DNA from: Acidimicrobiia bacterium
GTDB lineage: Bacteria > Actinomycetota > Acidimicrobiia > Spongiisociales > ZC4RG35
DNA length: 64,000 nucleotides
NCBI GenBank assembly: GCA_965215185.1
Contig: OZ244034.1
Span: forward strand, 2,880,001 to 2,944,000
Direction: 5' to 3'
The notes beneath the pieces are model-generated. The model worked only from the letters and a program-made list of their open reading frames with translations, was not told where the DNA came from and ran no database searches. The position numbers and the translations under genes were made by a program. Below, one piece after another: positions 6,367-45,405 of this stretch; position 1 is the first letter of the stretch; each line of letters begins with the position of its first letter.

Positions 6367-6388
6367 AGAATACCGAAAGGGTGTGACA
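6367..6388 (-). promoter_or_regulatory. TGTCAC-N10-TATTCT promoter (PafBC/RecA-NDp-like) upstream of tnpB
   Basis: Minus strand reads TGTCAC accctttcgg TATTCT, 9 nt before the ATG at 6357. Confidence 0.6.
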
Positions 6389-6526
6389 ATACTCGGGCAG
6401 TCAGCGTGCGTAAGCCTCAAAACATGCCTGTCAACCCAAGTATATAAATCCCTTTTGAATCCCTTTGTGCACGAACCGCGAAGCTTTCTCACAGGCCCAT
6501 AGGTTGCCTTGTTGGGCTGAGTGTGT

Positions 6527-9500
6527 TTAGTTGGGTTGGGGGATGAAGGAGGTGTTGCCGGGTCCCCAGATGTGAGGTCGGATGGCTACTCCGTTGATGA
6601 ACACCGCAGCCTCGGCGCGGGTGGCGTCCCGGTCGGGACAGAATAGATCGGGTCCGCAACCGGGCACGACCTGGAAATCGGTTAACCACGCGGCGCTGAC
6701 CGCGTAAAAGGCATCGATTTCGATGTCAGTATGAGAAGGTACCGTTCCGATGTAATCGGCTTCGGTGTGCCGGTATAGCAGGGTGGCCATCTGTCCGCGG
6801 GTGACGGACTGGGTGGGGCAGAAGCGCCAGTCGGGGTCGCCGAATTCGCCTGGGGTGCATCCTCGGGTTACTCCGTTGGCGACCGCCCAGCCGATCGGTT
6901 CTTCGGCGTACACCCCTTGGCGTACGTCGGTGAAGGCTTCGGATCCCAGGTACGGCGGGGCTGGTTGTCCGGCTGCTCGCCATAGGAAGGTGACGAATTG
7001 TTGCCGGGTGAGGTTGGCGTCGGGGCAGAACATGGTGGTAGTGCATCCTCGGGTTACTTCGTGGAGGATCATCCACGACACCGCCGATTCGTACCAGACT
7101 CCAGCCGGAACATCGGTGAACAGTTCAGAAGCTCCCGGCGGAAGTTCATCACCACCACCCTCATCAAAACCTCCACCTCCACCACCCCCTCCACCTCCCC
7201 CTCCACCGCCTCCACCACCTCCACCACCTCCACCACCTCCACCACCTCCACCACCTCGGATGGTTACGGTAACGGTCCCCACGATTTGCCCGTTATGTTC
7301 GGCTTCGATAACGATCGTCTCGGTGGATTCCGTCTGACTGTCGGTCAGGGCTGTGATCGTTGCGGCCCCTGAGGTTTCCCCGCCGGAAATAGTGATTGCG
7401 GGAGGGGTGATTGTGTAGTCGACTCCCTCTATTGCGGAACCCCCGATTACCCGGAGGGTCACAGTTTGGTCTCCGGGAAAGGTACGGGCGTTCCCGGTTG
7501 TTGCGGTTAGGGTGGCCCTTGAACCTTCGCTGATCTGTGAAGGCGCCACGGATAGAGTGATCTCGGGCACCGGGTCGTTGGTGACTGCATCTGCACTCTT
7601 GTTGGGTCCCTCCCTATCGTCATAGGTGGCAACGGCCCGTAGATAGTGGTCTTGGTCGTCGGTTGTCGGTGTGTAGGTGTGGGATGTGGCGCCGTCAATC
7701 AGGGTCCCGTTGGCAAACCGGCTGAGTGAACGTCGCCAGGACCAGGTGAGATCGGACACTCCGCCGTCGGGATCTTCCAGTTCAGCCTTGAGGGGGCGTC
7801 CTACCTGTGGTGGGTCCGAGGGCAGGGTGACGGTTCCGTCCTCGTCCAGGTTCTCGATGTTGACAGTGACCGTGATGGTGTCTGACAACCCGGATAGATC
7901 AGTGGCGGTGACTCTTACCGTGTATCGGCTCCGTTGCTCGAAGTCCGGTTCCGTCTTGGTTCGGAGTTGACCGGTTGAGTCATTGATATCCAGCAGCGTG
8001 GCGTGAGAGCCGCTGAGGGTGTAGGTCAGCCGGTCGTTGTTGTCCGGGTCGTCTGATTCCACTGGCAGGCCGATATCCATGCCCGGTGGGGTGTTCTCTT
8101 CGATGCTGCGGACGCCTGTTTCCGAGAGTGGGAAGTCCGGTGCTCGGTTACTGACCGGTTTGGCCTGTACTCGGTTGTCCGAGACGATCTCGAGAGGCTT
8201 GACGGTGCCGTGGTCGGTGTAGGACACCGAGACTCGGAGATATTTGCCGACATCTGCGGCTACCGGTCGGTAGGAGTTTGATGCAGCGCCGTCGACAAGC
8301 AACCAGGGGCCGTTGCGGTTGGTGGAACTGTGCCACTCCCAGGTAGCTGCAGTGACGCCGTCGGGATCGATCAACGTGGCAGTCAACCGGCTGTCCTCTT
8401 GGGGCTGGTCCGTTGACAGGGTGAAGGACTCCTCCTCGTTTTCGTTGGTAACGTTCACGGTGACATCGATGCCTTTGGTAATTGCTCCGTCGGAGGCTTC
8501 GACCGTTACCAGATAGGTGTTGTCCCGGTTGGCGTCGGCCGGGTTCTCATAGTCGGGCGGGGCGGAGAAGTGCAGCCCTCCATTTTCGTCTATGGTGAAG
8601 TCACCGCTATCGGGGCCGGCCGGCTTCCAGGTGAAGCTGTCGTGGTTCTCCGGATCCATTACGCTATACCCAGCTACTTCTACGGTGCCGTTCTCCGTGT
8701 AATCGATATCGGTTTGACCGATGACCTCATGGGCTTCGTTCTGGTTGGTCACCGTGACTGTGATATCCAAGCTGCCGTCATCGTTTCCATCGGAGGCGAC
8801 AACTGTGATCTCATAGGTGTTATCCCCGTCGTCATCGCGCCGTACTTCGAAGTCGGGTGGAGATCGGAAGCTCGGGGAAAACACGTTGTTTGTCAAGACA
8901 AAATCAAAAAGAGCGTCGTCGGGTCCAGTTATGTCCCAGTTTTGGATCGGTTCACGTTCTGGGTCTGTCGCGCTATAGGTACCGATCGGCCGATCGCCGT
9001 TCTCGGTATAGAAGACGGTGGTCTGTCCGGTCACAATCGGCTTCTCGTCAACATCAAGTACCTTGATGGCAACGTCGATGGTGTCATCGATGCGAGTGTC
9101 GGTTACATCGTGTATGTTCTTCTGGTCGCTGACCCTCACCCCTACCGAATAGTTGTCCCGCGTATCTGCGTCCAGTGACGTTCCGACGTCCACCGAGATC
9201 TGTCCGGTGGCGGTATCCAAATCAAAGAATCGGGAGTCGGTGCCCGTGAGGGAGTAGGTCAGGGTATCACCATCAGTGTCTATCGCCTCGACGGGTAAGC
9301 CGACAAGGGCTTCAGCGGGAGAATTCTCTTCGATCTCCCTGTCTGCGTCGTCACCTTCTTCGAAGTAGGGATCGACGTTGAGGACCGGCGTGCCCTCCTT
9401 GGTTGCCGACCACGGCCCGTCACCCTCGCTGTTTTTCGCCCGTAGCTGAACATCGTACTTCTTATTCGTCTCCAGACTTGTGATTGTGTACTCCCGGGCC

Positions 9501-12500
9501 GTCCCGCCGCCAGCGTTCTCGGTGGTCCAGTTGCTGTCGGACTTGTCCGAAGCATGGCTTGTGATGTAGCGGACTTCGTACCCGCTGATCGAAGCCGTGC
9601 CAGTGTTTGACGGGACGTCCCATTTGACCTTGAGAGAGGTGTCGCTGGAGACAATCGATTTGATGGTTGCCTCACCGGGGGCGTTCCGGTGGCCGTAGAC
9701 GGTGAGACTCCAATTCCGCAATCGGCTTGTTGAACCCCCGGAGTAGCGATCGGTGATGTGGAGTTTCCAATCGCCCGCGGGGTCTTCTCCCAAGTGCCTG
9801 GCTGAGCCAAAACGGTAGCTGCCGTTGAGTGCGCAACTGACCTCAAAGATGTCGAGATAGCGAGCGCAGTTCCCCGGGGAGTAGGGCACGGACAAAGTGG
9901 AGAAATCACCTGACGGAGATTCCAGTCTCACCTCCAGGTTCCTGAAGTCAGGAGCGGAGAAATTGGTGTTGATTTCCACGAATTCGACGAACTGCACTTC
10001 AGAACCCATGGTGATGGTGCTCGTCACGGTTGTGTCATTGTCGGGTATGGTCAGCGACCCCCCTGTGGAATTTGCCGTTTCCTGGGCGAACTCGGGGAGA
10101 TTGGTCCAACTGGAGGGGTTTGCCAAGTCCACTGCCGCCTTGGCGTCTACTACTCCGAAGCCATATTCGTGGTTGAAGCTGTAATTTCCAGTCGAGCCGT
10201 ATTTGGATGCCCCCTCTTCCCAGCCGCCGTTGGCCGAGTCGTTCTTGCGGGCCGAAGCGGCCAAAATGAGCTTCACGTCCCGCCAGGTCAGATCGGTGTT
10301 GGCGGCGCGAATCAGAGCAACTACCCCCGCCACCGCGGGAGCCGCCGAAGAGGTGCCGCCGAACGAGTTGATGTAAGCGTTGTAATTGGTGGTGGTGGTG
10401 ATACCGGGGCGGTCGCCGTAATCGTTCGAAGGACCGCACACCCACAGGTTGGCGCCTTGCTCCGAGTAGGCGGACCGCTCGCCAAGGTTGTTCACCGCGC
10501 ACACCGCGGTCACTCCGTAGTAATTAACAATCTCTTCGAGGTTCGAATTGTCACCTTTTCGACCTCCGTTGCCGGCCGCCCACACATAGAACACGCCTTT
10601 GCCTCCCAGACCTTGCGTGATTCCTAACTTCACCGCTTCTTCCCAGCCTTCGTGGATACGATCTACTCCAGGCCCGTCCAGAGAACCCCAACTGTTGGTG
10701 TTGACATGGGTGGTCTCCATTTCACGGATCGCGGCATCTGTGATGTTTACATTGGTGCCTTTTCGAAGGATGTTGTACGCATATATCTTGGCCCGCGGCG
10801 CTACTCCTCTACCCCCCAGGCTGTTGTCCCGCGCTGCAATGACACCCGCTACGTTGGTGCCGTGGGAGTTGTCATAGTAGAACACTTCATCGCCACCCCG
10901 GTAGTCATGGTTGAGGCTGGTGTTTACGTTGGGCTTTAAGTCGTCATGCTCGTAATCCAAACCGTTGTCAACCACCGCCACATTGATTCCTGCGCCCATG
11001 TTTCCGCCGGTCCATACATCTAAAACGTTGATGTCTTCCCCCGCTGTGCCGTTCAACTGGCCGGTGTTATCGAGGTGCCACTGGCATCCGTACAGGGGAT
11101 CGTCGAAGGAGGCGCTTATTGCCGAGCATTCGGTCACAGTGTTCTGATGACTTGTGTCCTCGATCATTTGGATGGTGTAGGGACCCGTTCCCACATCGTC
11201 GGCAATGTCGACCTTCATGTAATAGGTGCCGGCCCCCAAGCGGGTCCGTAGGCTAAAACCCTTTCCGCCCTCTGAGAAAAGGTCTTCGTAGATGTCCGCA
11301 GCTACCTCGGTGCCTCCGCTATCAAGCAGAGCCCCATCGATATCAACCGATCTACTCAGGGCTCGGAAGAAGATGTAGGTGCTCTCGGTGGTAACTATTT
11401 TGAAATAGTCCGAATCGGTTGAGGGATCCATTCTGCCCCCTCTTATGAACGATCGAGGGCTTGGATCGCCGAACTCCAAGGGGACCGCGTCCGAAAGTGT
11501 GTTTCCTGGTTCTGTGACCGTTTCAACGTGGATCGTGTATAGACCGGTAACTGCTCTGCCAGATCGTCGGGAGTGTGGGAACGACTCGACTTTGATGTAG
11601 TACACGCCGGCTGCCAGTTTGGCGCGGATGAGGAATTGCTTACTGGATAGGAGATCTCCATCATCGTTGTCCTTGATCTTCCTACTACGGCTGTCCAGTA
11701 GTTCTCCCACCGTGTCGTAGATCTGACCTGTGCTGCGTATGACGAGGTCGGTTTCTTCTTCCAGCTCTATCTTGAAGTAATCAACGTCGCCTCGCGGTGT
11801 CAATATGCCGTTCTCGAAGCTGCCAGGTGCTATTTCCTGGGCATTTCCTGTGCCGGTGGTTTCCGGGATCGTCTTGGTGCGCAAAACAAAGGGTCCGGTG
11901 GTGCTGTTTTCGTAACTGGTGACTTGGATGTAATATATTCCAGCTCCCAGATTCGCCGTGAGCAGGAAGTTCAATGGCCCATGGGAAAGACGACCGTCGT
12001 CATTGGAGCCCAGACTGTTGCCGTCTTTATCAAAGATCTCCCCACGGGTGTCGAGGTCACCGTAGGTGAAGATTAGAAACTGGGTCCTTTCCCTGAGGAC
12101 AAATTTGAAAAAGTCCTTGTCTGTTGCCGGATCGATCTTGCCCCCCATCCGGATGTCGAGTGGCAGGTCGGTGGCTGTCTGGAGGGTGTCGCCGTGCTCC
12201 TTCGGTGTGCCCGTTGCGGTGGCCGACCAAAGGCCGTCGGTTGTGGCCACTGCCCGTATCTGGACGTCATATACCGTGCCGTTAGTCAGACCGGCCAGCA
12301 CGTACTCTCTCCTACCGGATGTCCAGATATCTTCTTCTTCGGTCCAGTTGGTGGCAGAGGATTCCTTATAGCGAAGATCGTATGCGGTGATGTTTGCTTC
12401 TTCGAGGTCCGTGGGAACCTCCCAGGTGACGGTGAGAGCCTCGTCACCGGGGGTGATAGATGGTTCGTTGGGTTCGGGTTTCCCGGTGGAGGTAGCCGAC

Positions 12501-12844
12501 CAAGCCCCGTCTTCAGTGGTGTAAGCACGGATCTGGATGTCGTATTCCGTGTCGTTGGCCAAGCCGGTGAGCACATACCTCAAAGCGCCGGCGCCGGGGG
12601 TCCAAATGGTCCCTTGCGGCATCGGCATCCATTTGTCATCGGATTTATCCGTGGCGTCACTCTCTATGTAGCGAAGGTGGTAGGCGGTGATGCCGGTCAC
12701 CCCGGTGGGTGCGGTCCATTCGATGATGAGCGCCTGGTGGAAGGGGGTGATCGAATCGATAGTCGGTGGGCCGGGGCTCTGCGCCCAAACTTCGCCGGGG
12801 GCCACCAGTAGACACATCAGCGCGCAAATCAATCCATAACGCAT
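6527..12844 (-). CDS. Giant secreted kexin/furin-like S8 serine protease: signal peptide, 2 FN3, 3 PPC-like, S8, P-domain, FN3, cadherin-like/Ig repeats, poly-Gly, C-terminal SLH domains
   Basis: Signal peptide MRYGLICALMCLLVAPGEVWAQ. Catalytic motifs VVDNG, SHGTNVAG, AAGNGG and GTSSAAP. LTWRDVKLILA and FNHEYGFGVVDA are kexin-like. P-domain EFVEI..GDWKLHITD; cadherin DYE/DFE and DPD motifs; SLH FCPDANLTRQQ, TRGQMA and TRAEAA. Confidence 0.9.
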   Translation of the reverse strand: MRYGLICALMCLLVAPGEVWAQSPGPPTIDSITPFHQALIIEWTAPTGVTGITAYHLRYIESDATDKSDDKWMPMPQGTIWTPGAGALRYVLTGLANDTEYDIQIRAYTTEDGAWSATSTGKPEPNEPSITPGDEALTVTWEVPTDLEEANITAYDLRYKESSATNWTEEEDIWTSGRREYVLAGLTNGTVYDVQIRAVATTDGLWSATATGTPKEHGDTLQTATDLPLDIRMGGKIDPATDKDFFKFVLRERTQFLIFTYGDLDTRGEIFDKDGNSLGSNDDGRLSHGPLNFLLTANLGAGIYYIQVTSYENSTTGPFVLRTKTIPETTGTGNAQEIAPGSFENGILTPRGDVDYFKIELEEETDLVIRSTGQIYDTVGELLDSRSRKIKDNDDGDLLSSKQFLIRAKLAAGVYYIKVESFPHSRRSGRAVTGLYTIHVETVTEPGNTLSDAVPLEFGDPSPRSFIRGGRMDPSTDSDYFKIVTTESTYIFFRALSRSVDIDGALLDSGGTEVAADIYEDLFSEGGKGFSLRTRLGAGTYYMKVDIADDVGTGPYTIQMIEDTSHQNTVTECSAISASFDDPLYGCQWHLDNTGQLNGTAGEDINVLDVWTGGNMGAGINVAVVDNGLDYEHDDLKPNVNTSLNHDYRGGDEVFYYDNSHGTNVAGVIAARDNSLGGRGVAPRAKIYAYNILRKGTNVNITDAAIREMETTHVNTNSWGSLDGPGVDRIHEGWEEAVKLGITQGLGGKGVFYVWAAGNGGRKGDNSNLEEIVNYYGVTAVCAVNNLGERSAYSEQGANLWVCGPSNDYGDRPGITTTTNYNAYINSFGGTSSAAPAVAGVVALIRAANTDLTWRDVKLILAASARKNDSANGGWEEGASKYGSTGNYSFNHEYGFGVVDAKAAVDLANPSSWTNLPEFAQETANSTGGSLTIPDNDTTVTSTITMGSEVQFVEFVEINTNFSAPDFRNLEVRLESPSGDFSTLSVPYSPGNCARYLDIFEVSCALNGSYRFGSARHLGEDPAGDWKLHITDRYSGGSTSRLRNWSLTVYGHRNAPGEATIKSIVSSDTSLKVKWDVPSNTGTASISGYEVRYITSHASDKSDSNWTTENAGGGTAREYTITSLETNKKYDVQLRAKNSEGDGPWSATKEGTPVLNVDPYFEEGDDADREIEENSPAEALVGLPVEAIDTDGDTLTYSLTGTDSRFFDLDTATGQISVDVGTSLDADTRDNYSVGVRVSDQKNIHDVTDTRIDDTIDVAIKVLDVDEKPIVTGQTTVFYTENGDRPIGTYSATDPEREPIQNWDITGPDDALFDFVLTNNVFSPSFRSPPDFEVRRDDDGDNTYEITVVASDGNDDGSLDITVTVTNQNEAHEVIGQTDIDYTENGTVEVAGYSVMDPENHDSFTWKPAGPDSGDFTIDENGGLHFSAPPDYENPADANRDNTYLVTVEASDGAITKGIDVTVNVTNENEEESFTLSTDQPQEDSRLTATLIDPDGVTAATWEWHSSTNRNGPWLLVDGAASNSYRPVAADVGKYLRVSVSYTDHGTVKPLEIVSDNRVQAKPVSNRAPDFPLSETGVRSIEENTPPGMDIGLPVESDDPDNNDRLTYTLSGSHATLLDINDSTGQLRTKTEPDFEQRSRYTVRVTATDLSGLSDTITVTVNIENLDEDGTVTLPSDPPQVGRPLKAELEDPDGGVSDLTWSWRRSLSRFANGTLIDGATSHTYTPTTDDQDHYLRAVATYDDREGPNKSADAVTNDPVPEITLSVAPSQISEGSRATLTATTGNARTFPGDQTVTLRVIGGSAIEGVDYTITPPAITISGGETSGAATITALTDSQTESTETIVIEAEHNGQIVGTVTVTIRGGGGGGGGGGGGGGGGGGGGGGGGGGGGGFDEGGGDELPPGASELFTDVPAGVWYESAVSWMILHEVTRGCTTTMFCPDANLTRQQFVTFLWRAAGQPAPPYLGSEAFTDVRQGVYAEEPIGWAVANGVTRGCTPGEFGDPDWRFCPTQSVTRGQMATLLYRHTEADYIGTVPSHTDIEIDAFYAVSAAWLTDFQVVPGCGPDLFCPDRDATRAEAAVFINGVAIRPHIWGPGNTSFIPQPN
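7169..7255 (-). repeat. Poly-glycine tract (29 Gly codons) linking the stalk to the SLH anchor
   Basis: 87 bp of GGN codons, mostly GGT/GGA, between R and F. Confidence 0.95.
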
Positions 12845-12891
12845 TGATTTCAACGAGTGCCTCCCCAGGTGGACCCCTTCAAGACGCGGCC

Positions 12892-13842
12892 CTACTTGGT
12901 GGCTCTTTCCGTCCACCAGTTAGGACTTGAAAACACCACGCCATCCTGACCTGCAAGCGCGTTCGCCAGTTCCAAAGACGGGAAACCCGGTTCGGTCTCG
13001 ATGAAGAAGCCGTTCGGAAGCCATTCCAGTTCCGACACCTGGTCCAAGGTGATCTGGTTGGTGGCGAAAAAGGCGTCGGTGTCGGTTTGGCTCCACTCTG
13101 GATCAAGAGCCAGCAACACGCCTCCGGGCAGTGTCATCAACGCCCCGGAATCCGAGCGAAATACCGGCAGTCCATCGCTCTGGGTACTCCCGCTGGAACC
13201 CTGCTGTCCCCGAACTACGCTTCCCGCCCCGGTGTCGGCTATGACTTCGTCGCTGGGGAGGGTGGCGCCGTCCTCTCGCACTGTCAGATCCGGTTGTAGC
13301 GTCGCCTCCAACGTTCGGTCACCGTCCTGCCAGGAGTAGGTGGGGCCTTTGGAGGAACCGGGACTGTCTACAGGTTGGTCGCTGATGTGCGCCGGTTCTT
13401 CTTGTCCTTCTCCCGGGCTCTCGGCCTTCTCCGCGGAACTGCCATCGGAATCGACCGACAAAACAGTGTCGCTTGAGATCGTCTCGGATACTCCAGGGTT
13501 TTCCTCACCGGTGTACGTCTCGGCTCTGGATGTGGCAGTGGGGGCAGTAGTCGGTGGGGATTCGCCGGAAGCCACGGAGTGACTTGTAGAGGTTGTGCCC
13601 TTTTCTGGCAGCGGCGCATCGGGTGGGAGAAGCTCAATCGCATCACTCGAGGTCGTGGATGCGGGCTCAGCGACCAAGGCGGTTGGTCCCTGTTCGGTGG
13701 CCGAAACCGTGTCCTCGGTGGTGGCCGGGGATGTAAGGGACTGGACTGAAGAGGCGGGCATGTCGTCGCGCTCTAGCACCCAGAGGCCAATTGCCACCAA
13801 GGCAATGGCCACGATGACCAATAGGACCATTAGCCTTTTCAT
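12892..13842 (-). CDS. N-terminally anchored protein with a Ser/Thr/Pro/Glu linker and a C-terminal subtilase-prodomain-like domain (candidate trans-acting chaperone/inhibitor)
   Basis: RBS AGGAAG; MKRLMVLLVIVAIALVAIGLWVL hydrophobic N-terminus. C-terminal PVFRSDSGALMTLPGGVLLAL...SLELANALAGQDGVVFSSPNWWTERATK resembles S8 prodomains. Ends 47 bp before the protease start. Confidence 0.7.
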   Translation of the reverse strand: MKRLMVLLVIVAIALVAIGLWVLERDDMPASSVQSLTSPATTEDTVSATEQGPTALVAEPASTTSSDAIELLPPDAPLPEKGTTSTSHSVASGESPPTTAPTATSRAETYTGEENPGVSETISSDTVLSVDSDGSSAEKAESPGEGQEEPAHISDQPVDSPGSSKGPTYSWQDGDRTLEATLQPDLTVREDGATLPSDEVIADTGAGSVVRGQQGSSGSTQSDGLPVFRSDSGALMTLPGGVLLALDPEWSQTDTDAFFATNQITLDQVSELEWLPNGFFIETEPGFPSLELANALAGQDGVVFSSPNWWTERATK

Positions 13843-14121
13843 GTCACTTCCTGGCGGAGCGGGAACTCCAAATGGGCGATGCGAGGTAAAAGATGATATT
13901 AGGTTGGAGTATCGCAAAATCTGCGGAAGCCATGGTGAGGGCATCTCATAGGTGAGGCCGTGGTCGGAAGGCCTGTGACAGGGAGTCAAACAGGGTTAGG
14001 TCACAGGAACCCATGAGGCATGGAGCCTTGGCTGTGGAAGGAAACGTCGAACGAGACCTCCCTGGCTGCTTATTCTGGTGACTGGGTATGAAGGAAGTGC
14101 AGAGGCAGAGAGAGGCCTTGC

Positions 14122-15246
14122 CTAGGTTCCGACCAGCCTTTCGATCAGGGTGACCGACCGCAGCGAAGCGGTGCCGTCACCGTAGGGGGTGGGGGTTTGC
14201 GTCAGTTGGCGGTGGGTGAAGTCCAGGGTTTCTGTTATCTGCGTGATGGCTTCTTCCACGCCTTGACCTGGTTGGCGCAATACGGCGAAGGTGCCGATCA
14301 CCTCAGGGCGTTCGGTGGAGTTGCGGACTACCACCAAAGGGCGTTTGAGTACCGATACCTCTTCTTGCACGCCTCCCGAGTCGGAAACGACCAGGGCGCA
14401 TTCGGCCATAAGTGACAGGAAATCGGGGTAGGGGAGGGGATCCACCACCCGCAGTTTGTCCAGCAGCGGGCCCAGCCCGAAAGAGGCGGCTCTCTGGCGG
14501 CTGCGGGGATGGAGGGGCAGCACCACGGGCAATGAAAGGCTGGCCAGGTCGGAGAGGATGGTCTCCCAGGTCTGGGGATGATCGACGTTCTCGGGTCGAT
14601 GGAAGGTAGACAGGATGAAGCCGTTGGGTTTCAGACCGTAATGGGTCAGCACCTCGGCACGCTGGCCGGCGGGCGGGAGCAGCGAGTTAAGGGCTTCCAC
14701 CACCGGGTTGCCCGTGATAGCCACCCGGTCGCCACCGATTCCCTCCTTCGCCAGGTTCATAAAGGACGTTTCGGTGGGTGCCAGGCACAGGTCGGACAGA
14801 TGGTCGCAGACCACCCGGTTGTGCTCTTCAGGCATGGCCCGGTCGTAACTTCGAAGTCCCGCTTCGACATGCACCAGTGGAGTTTCGGCGGCGTTGGCGG
14901 CCAGGGAGCCGGCCAGCACCGCGTTGGTGTCGCCCTGAACCACCACCGCCCTGGGAGGGTCATCGGTGAACAACCGGGTCAGGCGGGAGGTCGCTTCTCC
15001 GATCTGGATACCCCGCGGCTCTCCTCCTACTTCCAGATAGTCGGAAGGAAAAGACAGGTCGAAGGCCCGAAAGAAATCGGCAGAGAGATTGGCGTCGTAG
15101 TGTTGGCCGGTGTGGATCACCCGGGCCGCGGGTCCCAAGAGTCGGATGATGTGCGCCAGTTTGATTATTTCGGGGCGGGTGCCCAGCACCACCGCTACCG
15201 AACCGGGAGGAAGATCAACGCTCACAATGGGTTGTGGGACGGCCAT
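14122..15246 (-). CDS. wecB: UDP-N-acetylglucosamine 2-epimerase (non-hydrolysing)
   Basis: VLGTRPEIIK, HTGQHYD, QGDTN, HVEAGLRS, PEEHNR, HRPEN, SDSGGVQEE, TERPE, YGDG. Confidence 0.95.
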   Translation of the reverse strand: MAVPQPIVSVDLPPGSVAVVLGTRPEIIKLAHIIRLLGPAARVIHTGQHYDANLSADFFRAFDLSFPSDYLEVGGEPRGIQIGEATSRLTRLFTDDPPRAVVVQGDTNAVLAGSLAANAAETPLVHVEAGLRSYDRAMPEEHNRVVCDHLSDLCLAPTETSFMNLAKEGIGGDRVAITGNPVVEALNSLLPPAGQRAEVLTHYGLKPNGFILSTFHRPENVDHPQTWETILSDLASLSLPVVLPLHPRSRQRAASFGLGPLLDKLRVVDPLPYPDFLSLMAECALVVSDSGGVQEEVSVLKRPLVVVRNSTERPEVIGTFAVLRQPGQGVEEAITQITETLDFTHRQLTQTPTPYGDGTASLRSVTLIERLVGT

Positions 15247-15839
15247 TCCCGATCGAGCAGCGAAAACACCATATGATCCATCCACTCTCCCCGCACCAGG
15301 ATCTCCTCCCGGGCGATCCCCTCATAGGAGAATCCCAGCTTCTCGGCGACCCTGCGACTGGAGTGGTTGCCCACTCCGATTCTCATCAGTATCCGATGGA
15401 GCCCCATTTCCTCAAAGCCGAGAGGCAGAAGCGCTTCGGCCGCCTCGGTGGCCACGCCCATATTGGCCAGGTCGGTTCGTACCCAATAGCCGATCTCCCC
15501 GGTGCGCTGTATCCGGGAGGTGTACCAGATCCCCGCTCCTCCCGCCACCCGACCGGGCTCCTCTTTCAGGCTGAGCGCGAAGTCGAAGGCCCGGCCCCGT
15601 CGCCAGGAACGGTGGGAGCTCTTGATGAAAATCCGGGCCTGGGGGAGTCCATAGAAGCCCTGCGCCCAGGGCAACCATCTACTCAGCTCGGGAAGCGACT
15701 CACCGACCGCTTCCGACAAAGGGCGGGCGTCACCGCTACGGAACCGGCGCAGCCAGAGCCGGTCGGTTGGTACTGCCGGGGGCATGGTATGGAAGAAGGT
15801 ATTCACAGGGTTTTTCGGTTGTCTTGCGCTTTGTGCCAT
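15222..15839 (-). CDS. GNAT family N-acetyltransferase (RimJ/RimL-like); start uncertain
   Basis: TDRLWLRRF, GEIGYW, GVATEAA, LHRI, NHSSRRVAEKLGFSYEG. Confidence 0.9.
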   Translation of the reverse strand: MAQSARQPKNPVNTFFHTMPPAVPTDRLWLRRFRSGDARPLSEAVGESLPELSRWLPWAQGFYGLPQARIFIKSSHRSWRRGRAFDFALSLKEEPGRVAGGAGIWYTSRIQRTGEIGYWVRTDLANMGVATEAAEALLPLGFEEMGLHRILMRIGVGNHSSRRVAEKLGFSYEGIAREEILVRGEWMDHMVFSLLDREWPSHNPL

Positions 15840-16401
15840 GATGGAGGGAATGTGGGACCGCCTTCAATACTCCTCCGAGGAGCCTATTCCTCCCAATGAG
15901 GGCATGGCGGCGGTCTTGGCCCCCATTTTCACAGATCAGGATGGAATTCTACGACTTGTGATCACCAAGCGGGCGCACACACTCAACAACCACGCCGGGC
16001 AACTCTCCTTTCCGGGCGGAAAGCCCAGTTCCGAGGACGCCGGTCCGGTGGAGACTGCTCTTCGCGAGACGTATGAGGAGGTGGGTATCCATCCCTCGCA
16101 GGTGGAGGTGCTCGGATTTCTACCGGTGATCCGCACTGTGCGGTTTGCCCTGCCCATGCTGGGGGTGGTCGCCCGCATCAAGGATGAACCGGTGTGTCGT
16201 CCCTCTCCCGATGAGGTGGAGAAGGTTCTCACACCCTCCCTGGAGAGCCTGGCCGAACCCGCAAACTGGCTTGATCGAAGCTGGGCCGGCGTTCCGCTTT
16301 GGTTCACCGAGGTATCAGGGGAATGGCTGTGGGGGGCCACCGCCCATCTGGTCCGCGTAATGCTGGGATTGCCCGTGACCTCGCGGCCCGCCGTTCGGTG
16401 A
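15838..16401 (+). CDS. Nudix CoA pyrophosphatase
   Basis: AAVL..TKRA..LNNHAGQLSFPGG..ETALRETYEEVGI, PSPDEVE, LWGATA. Confidence 0.9.
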   Translation: MMEGMWDRLQYSSEEPIPPNEGMAAVLAPIFTDQDGILRLVITKRAHTLNNHAGQLSFPGGKPSSEDAGPVETALRETYEEVGIHPSQVEVLGFLPVIRTVRFALPMLGVVARIKDEPVCRPSPDEVEKVLTPSLESLAEPANWLDRSWAGVPLWFTEVSGEWLWGATAHLVRVMLGLPVTSRPAVR

Positions 16402-16454
16402 ATCGCCACTCGTAAAGCCAGATGATGGTGTTATCCAAAGGCGGAAGCTGCCGT

Positions 16455-16476
16455 TGTCACTTTGATTTCGTACAAT
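16455..16476 (+). promoter_or_regulatory. Orphan TGTCAC-N10-TACAAT promoter
   Basis: TTGTCAC tttgatttcg TACAAT between convergent genes; no credible + strand CDS downstream. Confidence 0.55.
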
Positions 16477-16591
16477 TCGTCCTTGGAACCACAGATCTCC
16501 TCAGGGTGGGTTAGGTCGGCTTCGGCGGGACCCTTGTGCTCCCCGTCTTCTATCTGGACTCTGGGGTTTTCCGCTTGCTGCCCAACGGCGC

Positions 16592-18190
16592 CTATTGAGG
16601 AGGCGATGCGTTCTCCAACCGCAGCAGGCCCACAATCAGGCCGTCGGAAAGAGCCTCCCACGAGGCTTCGATGATATTGGGATGGACTCCCACCGTCCCC
16701 CAGGAGGTGGTTCCATCGGTGGTTTCGATCAGTACCCGCACGGTGGCGCCGGTGCCGTCGGAGGAGTCCAGCACCCGGACCCGGTAGTCGATCAGTCGAA
16801 GGAGCTCGACCTGGGGAAAAGCGGAGGTCAGCGCGGAACGGAGAGCCTGGTCGAGTGCATGGACCGGGCCCACTCCGGTACCGGTGGTGTGGTGGCGTTG
16901 TTCTCCGAGCTCCACTACCACCTCGGCCTTGGAGACGACTTCACCAGGGCCGTTGTCATGGTGGATGGAGACCGAAAAGCTCTGGGTTGAAAAGAGATTC
17001 TGGCGCCAGCCGAGTGTGTATCTCACCAACAATTCGAATGATCCGTCGGCAGCTTCGAACTGGTATCCGCGGTGTTCCTGTTCCTTGACCTGCTCCAGCA
17101 CCTCGCCAGCGGAATTTTGATCGAGGCCAATGCCCAGGGAGGCGGCCCTTCGGATGACGGCCGCCCGCCCCGCCTGTTCGGAGATGACCATCCGGGTGCG
17201 GTTGCCCACCAGGTCAGGTCGGGTGTGCTCGTAAGCGTCGGGTCGCCGCGCCAGGGCGGAGGTGTGAAGACCGGCCTTGTGGGTGAAGGCGGAGGAACCG
17301 ACATAGGGACGGTGGGGATCCAAAGTGATATTGACCACCTCGGCTATGTGGTGGGAGATGGAGGAAATCTGTGAGAGCCGCCCGCTATCAACCACGGGGA
17401 CGCCCATTTTCAGCACCAGGTCTGGGATGACCGTGGAGAGGTCGGCGTTCCCGGTCCGCTCTCCGTAGCCGTTGATGCATCCCTGCAACTGTCTGACCCC
17501 CTGCCCGGCGGCGCCCAACGAGGACGCAACCGCGCATCCGGTGTCGTTGTGAAAGTGGACTCCCAGCTCGGCTTGAGGCAGGGCCCGGTCAATCTGGACA
17601 ATGGTCCGGGTTATCTCGGTGGGCAGCGCTCCACCGTTGGTGTCGCACAGCACCAGCCGTTCCGCTCCGGCTTCCCAGGCCGCCTTAATCACCGCCAAGG
17701 CGTATTGGGGATTTGTCCGATAACCGTCGAAAAAGTGCTCGGCGTCGAAGAAAACCCGCCGGCCGTGCGATTTGAGATACTCCACCGACTCGGCGGCCAT
17801 CCGTATTCCCTCATCGGGCTCACAGCGCAACGCTTCTCGGACGTGATAATCCCATGACTTTCCCACGATGCAGATGATCTCGGTCTCCGCCTCCAGGAGA
17901 TGGCGCAGTTGCGGGTCGGCCTCCACCCGCCGGGAGGGCCGGCGCGTGGACCCGAAGGCAGTGAGTTGGCTGTTTGACAGGGACAGTTCCGTCTTGGCCC
18001 GAGCAAAAAACTCGTTGTCTTTGGGTAGAGCTCCCGGCCACCCACCCTCGATGTAATGAACGCCCAAAGAGTCCAGAAGCGAGGCGATTCGCAGCTTGTC
18101 GGAGACGGTGAGGGAGATACCCTCCTGCTGTGCGCCGTCACGGAGAGTCGTGTCGTATATCTCGAGCTTTGGGTGGATGGTGGGGGTCAT
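16592..18190 (-). CDS. cimA: Citramalate synthase
   Basis: DTTLRDGAQQEG, YIEGGWPG, FFDAEHFFDG, LCDTNGG, HFHND, GYGERTGNA, HKAGLH, FEAADGSFELL; C-terminal regulatory domain WGTVGVHPNII. Confidence 0.93.
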   Translation of the reverse strand: MTPTIHPKLEIYDTTLRDGAQQEGISLTVSDKLRIASLLDSLGVHYIEGGWPGALPKDNEFFARAKTELSLSNSQLTAFGSTRRPSRRVEADPQLRHLLEAETEIICIVGKSWDYHVREALRCEPDEGIRMAAESVEYLKSHGRRVFFDAEHFFDGYRTNPQYALAVIKAAWEAGAERLVLCDTNGGALPTEITRTIVQIDRALPQAELGVHFHNDTGCAVASSLGAAGQGVRQLQGCINGYGERTGNADLSTVIPDLVLKMGVPVVDSGRLSQISSISHHIAEVVNITLDPHRPYVGSSAFTHKAGLHTSALARRPDAYEHTRPDLVGNRTRMVISEQAGRAAVIRRAASLGIGLDQNSAGEVLEQVKEQEHRGYQFEAADGSFELLVRYTLGWRQNLFSTQSFSVSIHHDNGPGEVVSKAEVVVELGEQRHHTTGTGVGPVHALDQALRSALTSAFPQVELLRLIDYRVRVLDSSDGTGATVRVLIETTDGTTSWGTVGVHPNIIEASWEALSDGLIVGLLRLENASPPQ

Positions 18191-18215
18191 GGTCTTAGTC
18201 CTGTTCGGGGCAATG

Positions 18216-18243
18216 AAAAAGCCCTCCGCTGGGCGGAGGGCTT
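18216..18243 (-). terminator. Rho-independent attenuator terminator in the cimA leader
   Basis: Minus strand AAGCCCTCCGC-CCA-GCGGAGGGCTT-TTT, 25 bp upstream of the cimA ATG. Confidence 0.9.
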
Positions 18244-18267
18244 GGCGCAGGCTCGGGTTGCCAGCGC

Positions 18268-18309: not shown

Positions 18310-18316
18310 GGCCCCC

Positions 18317-18345: not shown

Positions 18346-18354
18346 CCGGCTAGG

Positions 18355-19356: not shown

Positions 19357-19387
19357 AGACGGATGACCGTCTTCTAACAGACGAATC

Positions 19388-21449: not shown

Positions 21450-21471
21450 TGTCACTGGGATTTGGTAGCCT
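21450..21471 (+). promoter_or_regulatory. TGTCAC-N10-TAGCCT promoter upstream of guaB3-guaA-pcrA
   Basis: TGTCAC tgggatttgg TAGCCT, 29 nt before the guaB3 ATG. Confidence 0.55.
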
Positions 21472-21500: not shown

Positions 21501-22658
21501 ATGGCAGTTGATATCGGCATCGGAAAAACCGCCCGGCGTGTATACGGGCTCGATGACATAGCCATAGTCCCCACTCGCCGCACCCGTGATCCCGACGATG
21601 TGGACCTGGGTTGGCAACTGGACGCCTATCCCTTCTCGGTTCCATTGATGTGCGCCTCGATGGATTCAACTATGAGCCCGGCCACGGTAATAGAAATAGG
21701 GATACTGGGTGGTCTCGGGGTGCTGAACCTGCAGGGATTGTGGACCCGTTACCAGGATCCGGCACCGATCTATGACGAGATCTCCTCCGCTACTCCTGAT
21801 CGGGCCACCGCTGTCCTCCGAGAGGTCTATAGCGAACCGATAAAGCCTGCGCTGATCGGTGAGCGCATCCAGGAGATCAGGGATTCGGGTGTGATCACGG
21901 CGGCCAGCCTTACGCCGCAGAACACCCTCCAGTATGCGCCGCTGGCGGTTGAGGCCGGTCTCGATCTGCTGGTCATACAGGGAACAGTGGTCTCGGCTGA
22001 GCATGTATCTACCCGCACCGAACCGTTGAATCTGAAGGAATTCATCGCCTCCTCTCCAGTGCCCGTGGTGGTGGGAGGATGTTCTTCATATTCCATGGCT
22101 CTTCACCTGATGCGCACCGGCGCGGTGGGAGTGTTGGTGGGTGTCGGACCGGGAGCCGCCAGCGGCACCCGAAAGGTGTTGGGAGTGGGAGTGTCTCAGG
22201 CCACAGCCATCGCCGACGCGGCCGGTGCCCGGGTACATTATCTATTGGAGACGGGACGGTACGTGCATGTCATCGCCGATGGGGGGATGAGAACCGGAGG
22301 GGAAGTCGCCAAGGCGATTGCCTGTGGGGCGGACGCGGTGATGCTGGGTTCCCCCTTGGCCGCCGCGCAGGAGGCGCCCGGGCGGGGCTTCCATTGGGGG
22401 ATGCTGTCTTCGCATCTCACCCTGCCTCGCGGTGTTCGGGTTGAGATTCCGACCCGCGGGACCCTGCGGGAGATCTTGTTGGGGCCGGCGACAGAAAGCG
22501 ATGGCCTCACCAATTTGTTCGGCGGGCTGCGCAGGTCGATGTCCACCACCGGGTACTCCAACATATTGGAATTCCAAAAGGCCGAAGTGGCAATAGCGCC
22601 CTCCTTCTTAGGCGAGGGCAAAGCTATCCAGCGGTCGCAGCAGGTGGGGATAGGTTGA
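21501..22658 (+). CDS. guaB3: GuaB3-family IMP dehydrogenase-related protein
   Basis: [52 protein letters not shown]. Confidence 0.92.
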
Positions 22659-24193
22659 CCTCTTCCGGCGACAATGTACTGGTAGTGGATCTGGGGGCGC
22701 AGTACGCCCGTCTGATCGCTCGGCGTATCCGAGAGGCGCGTGTTCACTCCGAGATAGTGCCGGCCCGGGTAACCGCTTCCGAGGCCGCGGCCCGATCTCC
22801 CTCGGGAATCGTCTTGTCCGGCGGTCCGGCCTCTGTCTACTCACCGGAAGCGGTCTCCATCGATCCGGACCTGCTGTCGTTGGGGGTACCGGTGCTGGGC
22901 ATCTGTTATGGGCATCAACTCATCGCCGAAATGCTGGGGGGCCAGGTGGTGGCAACCGGCGGGGGCGAGTTCGGGAATACCATCATGGAGTCGGACGACT
23001 CATCTCTGTTGTTGCAAGATTTGCCCCCGGTCTGCGATGTATGGATGAGCCATCGCGACGCGGTAGCGAAACCTCCTCCCGGTTTCACGGTGACTGCGCA
23101 CACCCCGGGAGCTGTGGTGGCGGCCATGGAGAACCGGGACGCGGGGCTATATGGGGTTCAATTCCATCCAGAGGTGACCCATACGCCGGGGGGGATGGAT
23201 GTTTTGAAGAGATTTCTCTACGGGGCTTGCGGCGCCCGGGGCGCCTGGACGGCTCGTTCCATAATTGAGACCGAGGTTGAGGATGCCCGCCAGCGGATCG
23301 GAGGTGCCCGGGCGGTGTGCGGTCTCTCTGGCGGAGTGGACTCGGCGGTGGCCGCCGCCCTGGTGCATCAAGCCATAGGTGACCGTCTCACCTGCGTCTT
23401 CGTCGACCACGGGCTGCTCCGATCCGGTGAACCCGAGCAGGTGGAAGAAGTGTTCGGAAACCACTTTTCCACCAACCTGATTCACGTCAAGGCCCAGTCC
23501 CGGTTCTTGGATGCCCTGACGGGCGTTACCGACCCGGAAACCAAGCGAAAGTTGATCGGGGAGACTTTCATCCAGGTGTTCGAAGAGGTATCCGATGGAC
23601 TGGCGGAATGTCGCTTCCTGGTGCAGGGGACTCTCTATCCTGATGTGATCGAATCGGGAGGGGGAGATGCGGCGGTGATCAAGAGTCATCACAATGTGGG
23701 CGGCCTCCCTGAGCACATGCGGCTCGAGCTGGTGGAGCCTCTCCGTGATCTGTTCAAGGACGAGGTGCGGGCGGTGGGTACGCAACTGGGGTTGCCGGAC
23801 GAGATAGTGTGGCGCCATCCCTTCCCCGGGCCGGGTTTGGCGATTCGAATCATCGGGGAGGTGACTGCCGAGCGGCTGGATATCCTGCGCCGCGCCGATG
23901 CCATCGTCATCGATGAAATCCGCCGGGCGGGCCTGTACCGCGATCTGTGGCAGGTTTTCGGCGTGCTGCCGACGGTGCGTTCGGTGGGGGTTCAGGGAGA
24001 TGAACGGACTTATGCCTATCCGCTGGTGGTGCGGGCGGTGGAGAGCTCTGAGGCGATGACCGCCGACTGGGCGCGGCTTCCCTACGAGGTGTTGTCGGCT
24101 ATTTCCCGGCGGGTGATCGGAGAAGTGGAGGGTATCAATCGGGTGCTTTACGATGTGTCCTCCAAACCTCCCGCCACTATCGAGTGGGAATGA
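22655..24193 (+). CDS. guaA: GMP synthase (glutamine-hydrolysing)
   Basis: [50 protein letters not shown]. Confidence 0.98.
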
Positions 24194-24194
24194 A

Positions 24195-26417
24195 GTGATC
24201 GGTTCACATCCGCTGCTCCAAGATCTGAACCCCAACCAGCAGGAGGCGGTGACCATCGCCGGGGTGCCCGTGATGGTGGTAGCGGGGGCCGGATCGGGCA
24301 AGACCCGGGTGCTAACCCATCGCATTGCCTACCTGATCCGGGAGATGGGAGCACCGCCCGGCTCCATCCTGGCCATAACCTTCACCAACAAGGCCGCCCG
24401 GGAGATGCGGGGGAGGGTGGGGGAGTTGCTGGGCGCCACGGTCAACAACATGTGGGTTTCCACCTTTCACTCGGCCTGCGCCCGCATCCTTCGCCGGGAG
24501 GCGCATGTCTTCGGCTATCGCTCCACGTTCTCCATTTACGACCGCTCCGACTCGATGCGTCTCATCAGGCAGTGTCTCAATGAACTGGGTCTGGACGCCA
24601 GTCGGCTCTCCCCTCAGGGGCTCTTGAAGAAGATCAGCGCCGCCAAAAACGATCTGGTGGACTATGAGACCTTCCTGGACCGCACGGAAGGACCTGTGGA
24701 GATAGCGGAGGCCTACAAGCTCTACCAGCAGCGCCTGCTGCAGATGTCGGCCATGGACTTTGATGATCTGCTGATGGTGACCGTGGAACTGTTCGGGGCG
24801 GTCCCCGAGGTCCTGGAAAAATACCGGGCTATCTTCCGCCATGTGCTGGTGGACGAATACCAGGACACCAACCGGGCCCAGTATCTGCTGGTTCGTGACT
24901 TGGCTCACCAGCATCGCAGCCTGTTTGTGGTGGGCGACAGCGATCAGTCCATATATGCCTTCCGCGGGGCCGACTTTCGGAATTTCGATCGTTTCGATGA
25001 TGATTTTCCCGAGGCCCGCCGGGTGATACTCAGCCGCAACTACCGCTCCACCTCCACCATCTTGGATGCGGCCAACGAGGTGATAAGCGGCAATCGTCGC
25101 TCTGAACCCAAAGACTTGTGGTGTGATCAGGGGGAGGGAGAACCCGTCTTGGTGCATCAGGGCGCGGGGGCTACGCGGGAGTCGCGGTTTGTCGCTGAAC
25201 AGGTTAGGAAACTGATGGGGGAGGGCTACAACCCGGGGGATGTGGCCGTGTTCTATCGGACCAACGCCCAGTCGCGTGCCCTCGAAGAGGCCTTGCGCAG
25301 TGCCAAACTGCCCTATCAAGTGGTAGGGGCGGTGGCCTTCTACCAACGCCGGGAGGTCAAAGACGTCGTGGCCTATCTGCAGGTGGTCGCCAATCCCGAC
25401 GACGGGGTGGCCTTGCGAAGAATCATCAACACCCCTCGCCGAGGGATCGGACGTACCTCTTTGGGGCATATGGAGCGTTACGTCTCAACGGAGGAAGTGA
25501 GTCTGCGGGAGGCTTTGGAAAGAGCAGATGACATTGGCGGCCTCTCCACCCGGGCCCGCAAAGGCGTCAAGGAACTGGCGAAGGTGCTGGCCTCGATCAA
25601 GGGGCATCTGGAGTCGGATGGGGTGGGCAGGGCCACTGAGAGCGCCATCTTCGACACCGGCTTGGCGGAGATGGCAACGGCGGAAGGGGGGATCGAAGCG
25701 GAGAGCCGCTCCGAGAACCTGGCCGAACTCTCCCGAGTGGCTTACGAATTCGACGCCGACCTGGAGGAGGAGTTGACTCCAACCGAACAGTTGGGTCGTT
25801 TCCTGGAAGGCGCCTCGCTGGTTTCTGATCCGGACAACCTGGATGAGGGAGCGGGCGCGGTGGCGCTGATGACTGTCCACAGCGCCAAAGGCCTGGAATT
25901 TCCGGTGGTGTTCGTGGTGGGAATGCAGGACGGTCTTTTTCCCCACGAACGCAGTTTGTCGGATCCCGATCAGCTGGAAGAGGAGCGGCGGCTCTTCTAT
26001 GTGGCGATCACCCGTTCCATGGAGCGGCTCCACCTGAGTTGGAACGACACCCGCTTGGTGGGAGGATCTCCCTATCCGCAGACCCCCAGCCGCTTCTTAC
26101 GTGAAATTCCCGACCGCCTGGTGAAGCGGGTCGGCGGCCGCCAGCGTTTCTCCTCCAGTGCACCTACCGGGGGTGGTCCCCCCGCAGGGGGTCAAGGCTC
26201 TTTCCGCTCCGAATACCGGCCGGTTAGAGGAATAGTTCGCCAATCGGGATTCGAAGTAGGTGATCGGGTACGCCATCCCCAACTGGGAACGGGACGGGTG
26301 CTGACCATTTCCGGCCAGGGACCCCGCGCTTCGGCCACCATCTTCTTCCCGGAGTCAAGGGAGCGTCGCGAGCTGATGCTGTCAACCGTGGAGAGAGTGG
26401 GGGGATTCGGACCTTGA
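24195..26417 (+). CDS. pcrA: PcrA/UvrD ATP-dependent DNA helicase
   Basis: AGAGSGKT, TFTNKAA, VDEYQDTN, GDSDQSIY, NYRST, TVHSAKGLEF, EEERRLFYVAITR; C-terminal Tudor-like tail. Confidence 0.95.
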   Translation: MIGSHPLLQDLNPNQQEAVTIAGVPVMVVAGAGSGKTRVLTHRIAYLIREMGAPPGSILAITFTNKAAREMRGRVGELLGATVNNMWVSTFHSACARILRREAHVFGYRSTFSIYDRSDSMRLIRQCLNELGLDASRLSPQGLLKKISAAKNDLVDYETFLDRTEGPVEIAEAYKLYQQRLLQMSAMDFDDLLMVTVELFGAVPEVLEKYRAIFRHVLVDEYQDTNRAQYLLVRDLAHQHRSLFVVGDSDQSIYAFRGADFRNFDRFDDDFPEARRVILSRNYRSTSTILDAANEVISGNRRSEPKDLWCDQGEGEPVLVHQGAGATRESRFVAEQVRKLMGEGYNPGDVAVFYRTNAQSRALEEALRSAKLPYQVVGAVAFYQRREVKDVVAYLQVVANPDDGVALRRIINTPRRGIGRTSLGHMERYVSTEEVSLREALERADDIGGLSTRARKGVKELAKVLASIKGHLESDGVGRATESAIFDTGLAEMATAEGGIEAESRSENLAELSRVAYEFDADLEEELTPTEQLGRFLEGASLVSDPDNLDEGAGAVALMTVHSAKGLEFPVVFVVGMQDGLFPHERSLSDPDQLEEERRLFYVAITRSMERLHLSWNDTRLVGGSPYPQTPSRFLREIPDRLVKRVGGRQRFSSSAPTGGGPPAGGQGSFRSEYRPVRGIVRQSGFEVGDRVRHPQLGTGRVLTISGQGPRASATIFFPESRERRELMLSTVERVGGFGP

Positions 26418-44358: not shown

Positions 44359-45295
44359 TACTCTCTTGTCCCCGCCCGGGCGATTGACGGCCTCCTCTCC
44401 CACTCCTTTAGTGCGCCTGGAGGCCTTTTCCCCGCCCGGTGTGGACATCTACGCCAAACTGGAGTGGTTTCAGCCCACCGGTTCCATCAAGGACCGGATC
44501 GCGGCGGCGATGTTGGAGAAAGCCCAGGCCGACGGACAGTTAGGACCGGGAACCCGTCTCTTGGAGCCCTCGTCGGGCAACACTGGGATCGCGCTGGCCC
44601 GGCTGGCTCGGCTGTGGAACATTCCGTTAACGGTGGTGATGGCTGAAGGCGTGAGCGCCGAACGAATCAAGATGTTGAAGATCTACGGAGCTGAGATCAT
44701 CTTCTCTCCCGGAGACCAGGGCTCCAACGGTGCGGTGCGCATGGCCGAGGAGATGGCGGCCACGGGCGACTATTTGATGCTGCATCAGTACAACAATCCG
44801 GCCAATGTCGATGCTCACTACCGGGGTACCGGTCCGGAGATTGTGGCCGAGTTGGACAGGGTGGACGCCCTGGTGGCCGGACTGGGAACGGGAGGGACTC
44901 TGATGGGCGCCGGTGCGGCGGTCCGGGAAATTCATCCCCAAGTGCAGGTGGTGGCGGCCGAGCCGCCGGTTGGCGAGACCATCACCGGCTTGCGGTCCAT
45001 GTCGGCCGGCTACATTCCCCCCATCTTCGACCCGGCTCAGATCGATCGCCGGTTGTTGGTGCGCCTGCGGCCCACCATCGAATACACCCGTCTGCTGCTT
45101 TCTGCCGAGGGGCTGTTCGCCGGACCCTCCTGCGGGGCGGCACTGGCGGTGGCTATTCGGGTCGCCAGACAGATGCAGTCGGGGACAGTGGTGACCATCT
45201 TCCCCGACGCCGGGTGGAAATACCTCTCCACTGGGATTTATACGGGGTCCATCGACCAAGCTGTGGAAAAGGCCGCCAACCAGATCCTCTGGTAG
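44351..45295 (+). CDS. cysM: O-phosphoserine sulfhydrylase / cysteine synthase (CysO-dependent)
   Basis: KLEWFQPTGSIKDR, PSSGNTG, GLGTGGT, DAGWKYLSTG, C-terminal QILW. Confidence 0.88.
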   Translation: MVNTLLSPPGRLTASSPTPLVRLEAFSPPGVDIYAKLEWFQPTGSIKDRIAAAMLEKAQADGQLGPGTRLLEPSSGNTGIALARLARLWNIPLTVVMAEGVSAERIKMLKIYGAEIIFSPGDQGSNGAVRMAEEMAATGDYLMLHQYNNPANVDAHYRGTGPEIVAELDRVDALVAGLGTGGTLMGAGAAVREIHPQVQVVAAEPPVGETITGLRSMSAGYIPPIFDPAQIDRRLLVRLRPTIEYTRLLLSAEGLFAGPSCGAALAVAIRVARQMQSGTVVTIFPDAGWKYLSTGIYTGSIDQAVEKAANQILW

Positions 45296-45383
45296 CGAGT
45301 TATACGCCCACCCTTCCAGCCGTCACCTACATTTCCCCGCAACCTTCCGGCGAGGTGGGGCGGGTATTGGCGCCAACGGCCGA

Positions 45384-45405
45384 TGTCACATCCCCCTCAT
45401 ACAGT
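45384..45405 (+). promoter_or_regulatory. TGTCAC-N10-TACAGT promoter upstream of the RecQ-PRTase/DprA pair
   Basis: TGTCAC atccccctca TACAGT; ATG 45412 starts 6 nt after the -10 box. Confidence 0.6.

Follow-up and report, generated by a model that had tools for sequence, protein, structure and literature searches.

A two-part promoter signal in the window and its genome

The stretch of DNA analysed here (the window) comprises 64,000 nt, positions 2,880,001 to 2,944,000 of contig OZ244034.1, from an Acidimicrobiia bacterium whose genome, hereafter G000, is a single contig of 3.12 Mb with 60.7% GC and 95% completeness. The window contains four copies of the sequence TGTCAC-N10-TAnnnT (the strict pattern), located at 6367-6388(-), 16455-16476(+), 21450-21471(+) and 45384-45405(+). 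A preliminary description had presented these sites as promoters of the PafBC type that connect a tnpB gene, the genes guaB3-guaA-pcrA, a defence system and an orphan RNA. All four are exact and lie between genes, and there is no fifth in the window. Three are directed into a gene, with an ATG 9 nt after the first, guaB3 29 nt after the third and the ATG of a helicase gene 68 nt after the fourth. The pattern occurred 0.15 times on average in 100 dinucleotide shuffles of the window, none of which reached four copies, in agreement with the rarity that had been estimated for it.

Across G000 the strict pattern is found 25 times, with 22 of these copies intergenic. The spacing between its two halves is specific: 25 matches have a spacer of 10 nt, while each other spacer from 4 to 19 nt has 2 to 6 (Poisson p ~1e-14 against the mean of the other spacers). 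When every 5-mer was scanned without bias at every distance from intergenic -10-like boxes, this motif made up the five top rows. An iterated position weight matrix (PWM) widens the motif to TGTCACA-sss-N6-YAnnnT and at a score of 14 or more has 72 matches in G000, 63 of them intergenic. The genome-wide intergenic enrichment that had been put forward as a check is therefore present in G000, the counts being approximate because the genes were called with a simple gene finder of our own. Of 67 strong sites, 14 have an ATG at +6 or +7 downstream of the -10 box, and any other offset is seen in 0 to 3 sites. This peak, indirect as it is, is as would be expected for leaderless transcripts. The motif is a genuine two-part promoter signal, its function as a promoter being predicted.

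The gene pafA of G000 has two WYL genes, pafB and pafC, directly behind it (G000:44.8-48.1 kb), and the regulator genes that had been listed for a check are thus present. Structure matches of the two WYL genes are to PafB, PafC and fused PafBC only. The PafB recognition helix RRTFQRDK aligns with SRMFERDK (7p5x_AY) and keeps both GTC-reading arginines, equivalent to R46 and R50. The published PafBC consensus is tGTCgg(N10)tA(N3)T, in which lower case letters are at most 50% conserved, and GTC is strictly kept across actinobacteria (PMC8635444). The sites of G000 share with those of the mycobacterial regulon the 22-nt bipartite form, the GTC core, the 10-nt spacer and the -10 box; the pafA-pafB-pafC operon, both GTC-reading arginines and a site before recA that is accompanied by a LexA box are common to the two as well. 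The G000 sites differ in preferring ACA after GTC, rather than gg, and in a -10 box that often begins with C. The suggestion of a lineage-specific TGTCAC variant holds in that TGTCAC is the form used here. It is ordinary variation rather than anything special, because it falls inside a published consensus in which only GTC is strict.

Annotation of the genes behind the sites covered 76 proteins around 40 fetched regions, with 11 proteins compared to PADLOC. The gene recA is preceded by the motif in 25 of 25 genomes of the order, and in 24 of these by a LexA-type box also. Other repair and replication genes behind sites in G000 are rmuC, a UvrD-PD(D/E)XK helicase-nuclease, polA, uvrB, lhr, UvrD2-HRDC, dnaB and gyrB. 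Defence genes are represented by JetC, SoFic and PDC-S11, and mobile genes by two integrases, an IS110 gene, tnpB and DUF222-HNH. Some unrelated genes and genes of unknown function are also found behind sites. In G000 there is an enrichment of the motif ahead of repair, defence and mobile genes, in support of the earlier inference. In the comparison proposed for recA, uvr, ruv and HNH genes, a site is present at 5 of 8 units, namely recA, uvrB, two DUF222-HNH genes and the pcrA operon. Of 1576 operon heads, 27 have one.

Taken with the motif geometry, the pafA-pafB-pafC gene order and the clustering of start codons, this enrichment supports the PafBC-type promoter that had been proposed. It is very likely that the motif is this lineage's PafBC-type promoter, read by its own PafBC. 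Some results weigh against the regulon as drawn. The 5 of 8 figure is partly circular, because the sites counted afterwards were among those used to train the PWM. The motif scan found no site in G000 at uvrA/uvrC or ruvC, which is a difference from the mycobacterial regulon, nor at lexA, the stand-alone HNH gene or the paf operon. The site before guaB3 is kept (PWM of 12 or more) in 13 of 15 congeners and is confined to the genus, with 0 of 11 other genera having it.

The motif could have a different reader, for instance a sigma factor specific to the lineage, a ClgR-like activator or a protein of the CRP type, in which case the PafBC genes would be incidental. TCACA is a CRP half-site, and its resemblance to the first box would suit a CRP-type reader. 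However, the partner half-site TGTGA is present at CRP distance in just 2 of the 67 sites, and the CRP reading fails on this. The RecA-NDp motif, as the mycobacterial signal is called, was once attributed to a Clp gene regulator (PMC3381160). Against any such reader, the length, spacing and GTC core equal the published PafBC consensus (PMC8635444), and recA carries the site in every genome of the order that was compared. A reader other than PafBC is therefore very improbable.

The mycobacterial PafBC / RecA-NDp regulon works by sigma adaptation (PMC8635444, PMC11804915). If the mycobacterial mechanism applies here, PafBC would sense single-stranded DNA, the helix-turn-helix of PafB would bind GTC at -26 and SigA polymerase would start approximately 7 nt after the -10 box. 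On DNA damage, PafBC would then activate genes for repair, defence systems and mobile nucleases, together with what is predicted to be a multi-copy non-coding RNA. As such, the regulon adds another Acidimicrobiia genus to known biology, which a specialist would expect. What is new is the identity of the members that joined it: TnpB and DUF222-HNH elements have the promoter within their own ends, the PsyrTA defence pair keeps its site across the order, and dozens of copies per genome of a non-coding unit not described before are predicted to belong to it.

Three observations on G000 adjoin these results. A site with a PWM score of 21 lies directly before a tRNA cluster and trigger factor (G000:2964919). 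LexA-type boxes are few, at 546087, 552721-552768, 1138571, 1423577, 1559589 and 1621635, and belong to recA, lexA and a few unannotated loci. A search with TIGR00416 did not find radA.

Window sites associated with genes

The site at 21450..21471 (+) is a predicted PafBC-type promoter, and its counterparts upstream of the orthologue in relatives reach a PWM score of 12 or more. It precedes guaB3 of the IMPDH family (21501-22658, +), guaA (22655-24193, +) and pcrA/uvrD (24195-26417, +), all assigned by Pfam. These genes overlap or abut and are probably co-transcribed (21501..26417). A weak internal site (PWM 9.1) is present in guaA at about 24130-24152, roughly 43 nt before pcrA, the coordinates being approximate; it could be a second, pcrA-specific promoter.

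The other predicted PafBC-type promoter of this kind, at 45384..45405 (+), lies before a pair of genes that match the PsyrTA/RqlHI system in PADLOC, Pfam and NCBIfam. The first, PsyrT/RqlH (45474-47540, +; PADLOC PsyrT E 7e-267), encodes a RecQ-like helicase with a PRTase-like tail, and the second, PsyrA/RqlI (47537-48511, +; PADLOC PsyrA E 7e-83), a DprA-like protein. The identification of a RecQ-PRTase/DprA defence system in the preliminary description is borne out by these matches, its anti-phage role being predicted. The described PsyrTA/RqlHI system likewise consists of a RecQ-like helicase with a PRTase domain and a DprA-like partner (bioRxiv 2022.05.11.491447). Here this toxin-antitoxin pair is recognised from its genes alone, and what differs from the available account of it is the promoter, which is kept before the homologues across the order: TGTC-N12-YAnnnT is found upstream of 10 of 10 PsyrTA homologues from 9 genomes and 6 genera. 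In Mycobacterium smegmatis, we take MSMEG_5935 to be RqlH. This gene, listed as RecQ, drops in a pafBC deletion (table of PMC5656591). The sites before guaB3-guaA-pcrA and PsyrTA are likely to be working members of the regulon.

The site upstream of tnpB has a different origin. It forms the -26 and -10 boxes of a PafBC-type site (6367..6388, -; PWM 26.9) in the left end of a TnpB-carrying element, and this left end (6389..6456, -) is shared with a full copy at G000:1954089 (blastn 94% over 345 nt from window position 6456). The gene behind it (5938..6357, -) has the same start as a 457-aa TnpB encoded elsewhere in G000, up to a breakpoint after approximately 82 codons beyond which its sequence is unrelated. 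It has no Pfam or NCBIfam match and, by these searches, lacks the RuvC/TNB nuclease domains, so that it is a 5' fragment and not a full-length gene. The same left end also precedes the other 7 tnpB copies. The promoter or a close variant of it is present upstream of all 7 strong TnpB-domain matches, one having an 11-nt spacer and one starting with TTTC. Since all seven carry it, the promoter wiring of tnpB belongs to the element. Of the motif reported before tnpB, the site and the downstream ATG exist; the site is transposon-borne and the gene a truncated fragment. On this comparison, the site arrived with the transposon end and now heads a gene fragment.

The dispersed R1 sequence and DUF222-HNH elements

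Many strong sites in G000 are directed at no gene and begin a shared sequence of approximately 190 nt, here called R1. By a sequence model there are 29 copies in G000, 21 to 81 in each of 16 of 16 congeners and 66 in a genome of another family (G027), these being counts among the candidates scored and possibly lower bounds. The model found none in 13 other relatives, and under stricter filters R1 was absent from all of 150 other genomes drawn from the class. Viral contigs had no copy. The copy nearest to the window starts at G000:2953426, 9 kb past its end. Of the 67 strong sites in G000, at least 11, or about one in six, stand at the head of an R1 copy. A second, more divergent subtype is found behind the same promoter at G000:2742435-2742686, 1389031-1389125, 2189811-2190054 and 818507-818580. 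A literature search found no description of R1, and the passages available from PMC8682763, PMC8151990 and PMC11077062 contain nothing on it. R1 is an undescribed non-coding element that is found outside the window. Should damage induce its transcription, R1 would form the largest single part of the PafBC regulon in this lineage and would allow the spread of DUF222-HNH (13E12-type) elements to be tested directly.

In each unit, CAAACACC comes after an A-tract, a -35-like TTGA and the -26 and -10 boxes. A hairpin and GGGATCA are next, and then a domain of variable hairpins, a tract of GGN repeats that might conceivably form a G-quadruplex, and TTTTCGCGA. A pattern based on the body alone, and therefore independent of the promoter, matches at least 116 loci in GTDB. 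Among the matches listed, 98 of 113 usable loci have a site with a PWM score of 12 or more at 48-61 nt upstream of the anchor, and the downstream control windows have none. Likewise, 29 of the 30 best copies in G027 are preceded by a site. In G000, 18 of 24 copies face the end of a convergent gene, where 47% would be expected (p 0.005).

R1 does not have a conserved reading frame, as anchor distances are spread over all three frames; these frame-free indels rule out a poly-Gly or poly-Pro coding remnant. Comparison of 20 loci with Rfam returned only a neighbouring tRNA and two sub-threshold rows. A first RNAalifold run on 18 copies from G000 gave just 5 pairs. With 32 copies, an alignment from which the more divergent 11 of the 43 available had been omitted by eye, RNAalifold gave a closing stem CACC/GGUG, two short helices of G-C pairs and a hairpin, P1, in which compensatory changes occur. 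In the resulting 18-pair model 89.4% of cells pair and there are 20 two-sided changes, with 0 of 500 shuffles as high on either measure; the number of covarying pairs (4) and the pair types are not above those of shuffles. In a second long hairpin (P2), one strand pairs better with the partner strand of its own copy than with those of others; this holds for 44 of 57 non-redundant copies, while both controls were null.

R1 is also associated with DUF222-HNH genes, which are dispersed in the genus at up to 26 per genome and which we presume to be the 13E12 (REP13E12) family. Their loci have a conserved left end, and 47 of 58 have the motif promoter. In loci L190-L229 the left end is conserved over approximately 50 bp and the C-terminal coding tail KQRK is roughly its inverted repeat, which suggests that these elements have defined ends. 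An R1 unit follows 7-69 nt after the stop codon, on the same strand, at 10 of 59 DUF222-HNH genes, and at least 4 further genes have a full or partial unit upstream. The R1-linked genes form two clades at different loci (4 changes against 7.4 when shuffled; 1 of 500). In the predicted structure of the protein (pLDDT 71), a DNA-binding domain like that of ParB is accompanied by an HNH domain, both with middling Z scores. The best structural row for the HNH domain is IscB (Z 8.1, root mean square deviation (rmsd) 1.8, 64 residues), which shows only a shared HNH fold. A fold search against the PDB returned nothing at E 0.001 or better, and the ESM Atlas returned DUF222/HNH clusters only.

Insertion elements with this promoter are already known from M. 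tuberculosis, where 13E12 (REP13E12) is a family of dispersed, damage-induced elements with a RecA-NDp promoter (PMC3381160). The elements described here are alike in their dispersal and in the promoter type. Many of the mycobacterial members are also LexA-bound, and the two clades with a downstream R1 unit have no counterpart in the available part of that description.

R1 is rather likely to be a transcribed, structured RNA under this promoter. The most likely course is that R1 is a non-autonomous element that spread with or from the DUF222-HNH insertion elements and kept its damage promoter. Several results speak against transcription under PafBC control or against an RNA-level structure. 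A strong site is present at just 12 of 24 full copies in G000. Most R1 promoters also have the -35-like TTGA at 17 nt, unlike the mycobacterial PafBC promoters, which lack a -35 box (PMC8635444), so that they may work without PafBC. The folding of whole copies is not superior to that of shuffles (mean z -0.08), and pairing in helices P1 and P2 is at least equally good on the opposite strand.

The pairing on both strands would also fit an element that acts as DNA. It is quite possible, if not favoured, that R1 resembles a miniature inverted-repeat transposable element (MITE), its hairpins and end boxes serving a mobilising protein, probably the DUF222-HNH helix-turn-helix, and its transcript being a by-product. 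R1 is present or absent at orthologous sites and is patchy in distribution, in one genus and one other family, with 0 of 150 further genomes from the class having a copy. The DNA-binding fold of DUF222 is ParB-like (Z 7.9, rmsd 2.8, 97 residues). Inverted TTTTCGCG-type boxes are found at both R1 ends and resemble the left-end box of DUF222-HNH, but the resemblance is weak by matrix, matching at just 12 (5', inverted) and 8 (3') of 107 loci. Six comparisons of filled and empty sites did not have sharp ends or target duplications, the empty sites being too diverged for junctions to be read. Counting against a DNA-level element are the retention of the promoter in G027 and among the listed GTDB loci, and a site orthologous in 7 species at which identity is 84% in the body and 62-64% in the flanks. 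So does the finding that, in three short helices, 8 of 8 pairs that vary on one side change C to U opposite G.

Multi-copy structured units of 150-200 nt that are tied to mobile nucleases or damage responses include OMEGA stand-alone guide RNAs, palindrome-associated transposable elements (PATEs), the IS110 bridge RNA, Y RNA, retron RNA and REP/MITE repeats. R1 is like these in general form and differs in having neither an Rfam match nor a contiguous guide. Neither Ro60/TROVE nor a reverse transcriptase was found in G000 (95% complete), which speaks against a Y RNA or retron RNA, and no Y1 transposase was found in 31 genomes, which speaks against an IS200/IS605 PATE. An OMEGA-like arrangement, with R1 as the scaffold or guide RNA of the DUF222-HNH nuclease and solo copies acting in trans, would accord with the units directly behind 10 of 59 genes in two clades, with the shared damage promoter type and with the closeness of the HNH domain to IscB, which is a shared fold only. 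It is nevertheless unlikely. The other 49 genes do not have R1 downstream, no DUF222 gene is within 1.5 kb of the 30 copies examined among the 66 of G027, and R1 is absent from other genera that have as many as 12 DUF222 genes. For contiguous matches, the variable segments do not match their own flanks (longest 7.5 nt, against 7.7 nt for the flanks of other copies) and have no match to the genome beyond 16 nt. The DUF222-HNH tree does not show co-evolution with R1, because kin share labels. Equally unlikely is the wider reading in which structured RNAs of a new, damage-induced class, R1, with 20-80 copies per genome in two Acidimicrobiia lineages, partner DUF222-HNH (13E12-type) nucleases and act in trans from solo copies.

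The site at 16455 and other features of the window

The remaining motif match, at 16455..16476 (+; PWM 17.5), is in a 190-bp stretch between convergent NUDIX and cimA/leuA-type genes. An orphan RNA had been placed here (16476-16591), and this is rejected. The stretch is absent from 30 relatives searched, the sequence downstream of the site folds worse than shuffles (z +1.5 to +1.9), the window has no Rfam match at gathering score, and there is no similarity to R1. In 25 other genomes no site with a PWM score of 13 or more was found within 300 nt of the cimA stop codon, the best (12.5) belonging to an R1 copy in the genome G005. DNA contigs of other samples compared with window 4800-22000 and G000:2176000-2193000 had no clean joint at a site or at an R1 copy. 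The site is probably an insertion remnant or a chance match.

A working promoter of a small RNA antisense to the 3' end of cimA would be in keeping with the exact motif, with its PWM score, with a geometry like that of most R1 copies, which also face the end of a convergent gene, and with the R1 copy that occupies the same slot in G005. Its absence from the relatives, its lower structure than shuffles and its lack of R1 similarity make such an RNA quite improbable.

In most congeners, the NUDIX and cimA genes abut or enclose another insert. Insertions recur in this slot, next to the 3' end of the cimA/leuA-type gene (L158, L162, L163, L166, L168), making it a hot spot: it is occupied by an R1 copy in G005 and, in several congeners, by a gene that by eye is NYN-domain-like.

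Elsewhere in the window, comM of the Mg-chelatase family is split into four frames and a second dprA into two (57901-60238), a pattern suggestive of either competence genes in decay or frameshifts in the assembly. A Na+/H+ exchanger gene is in two open reading frames (31728-32905). A 2129-aa surface protein with subtilase, fn3, cadherin, Calx-beta and SLH domains is encoded at 6527-12916. The genes at 50033-54166 encode a polyprenyl synthase, an amine-oxidase-family protein and two squalene/phytoene synthases, a set that we take to resemble hpnCDE.

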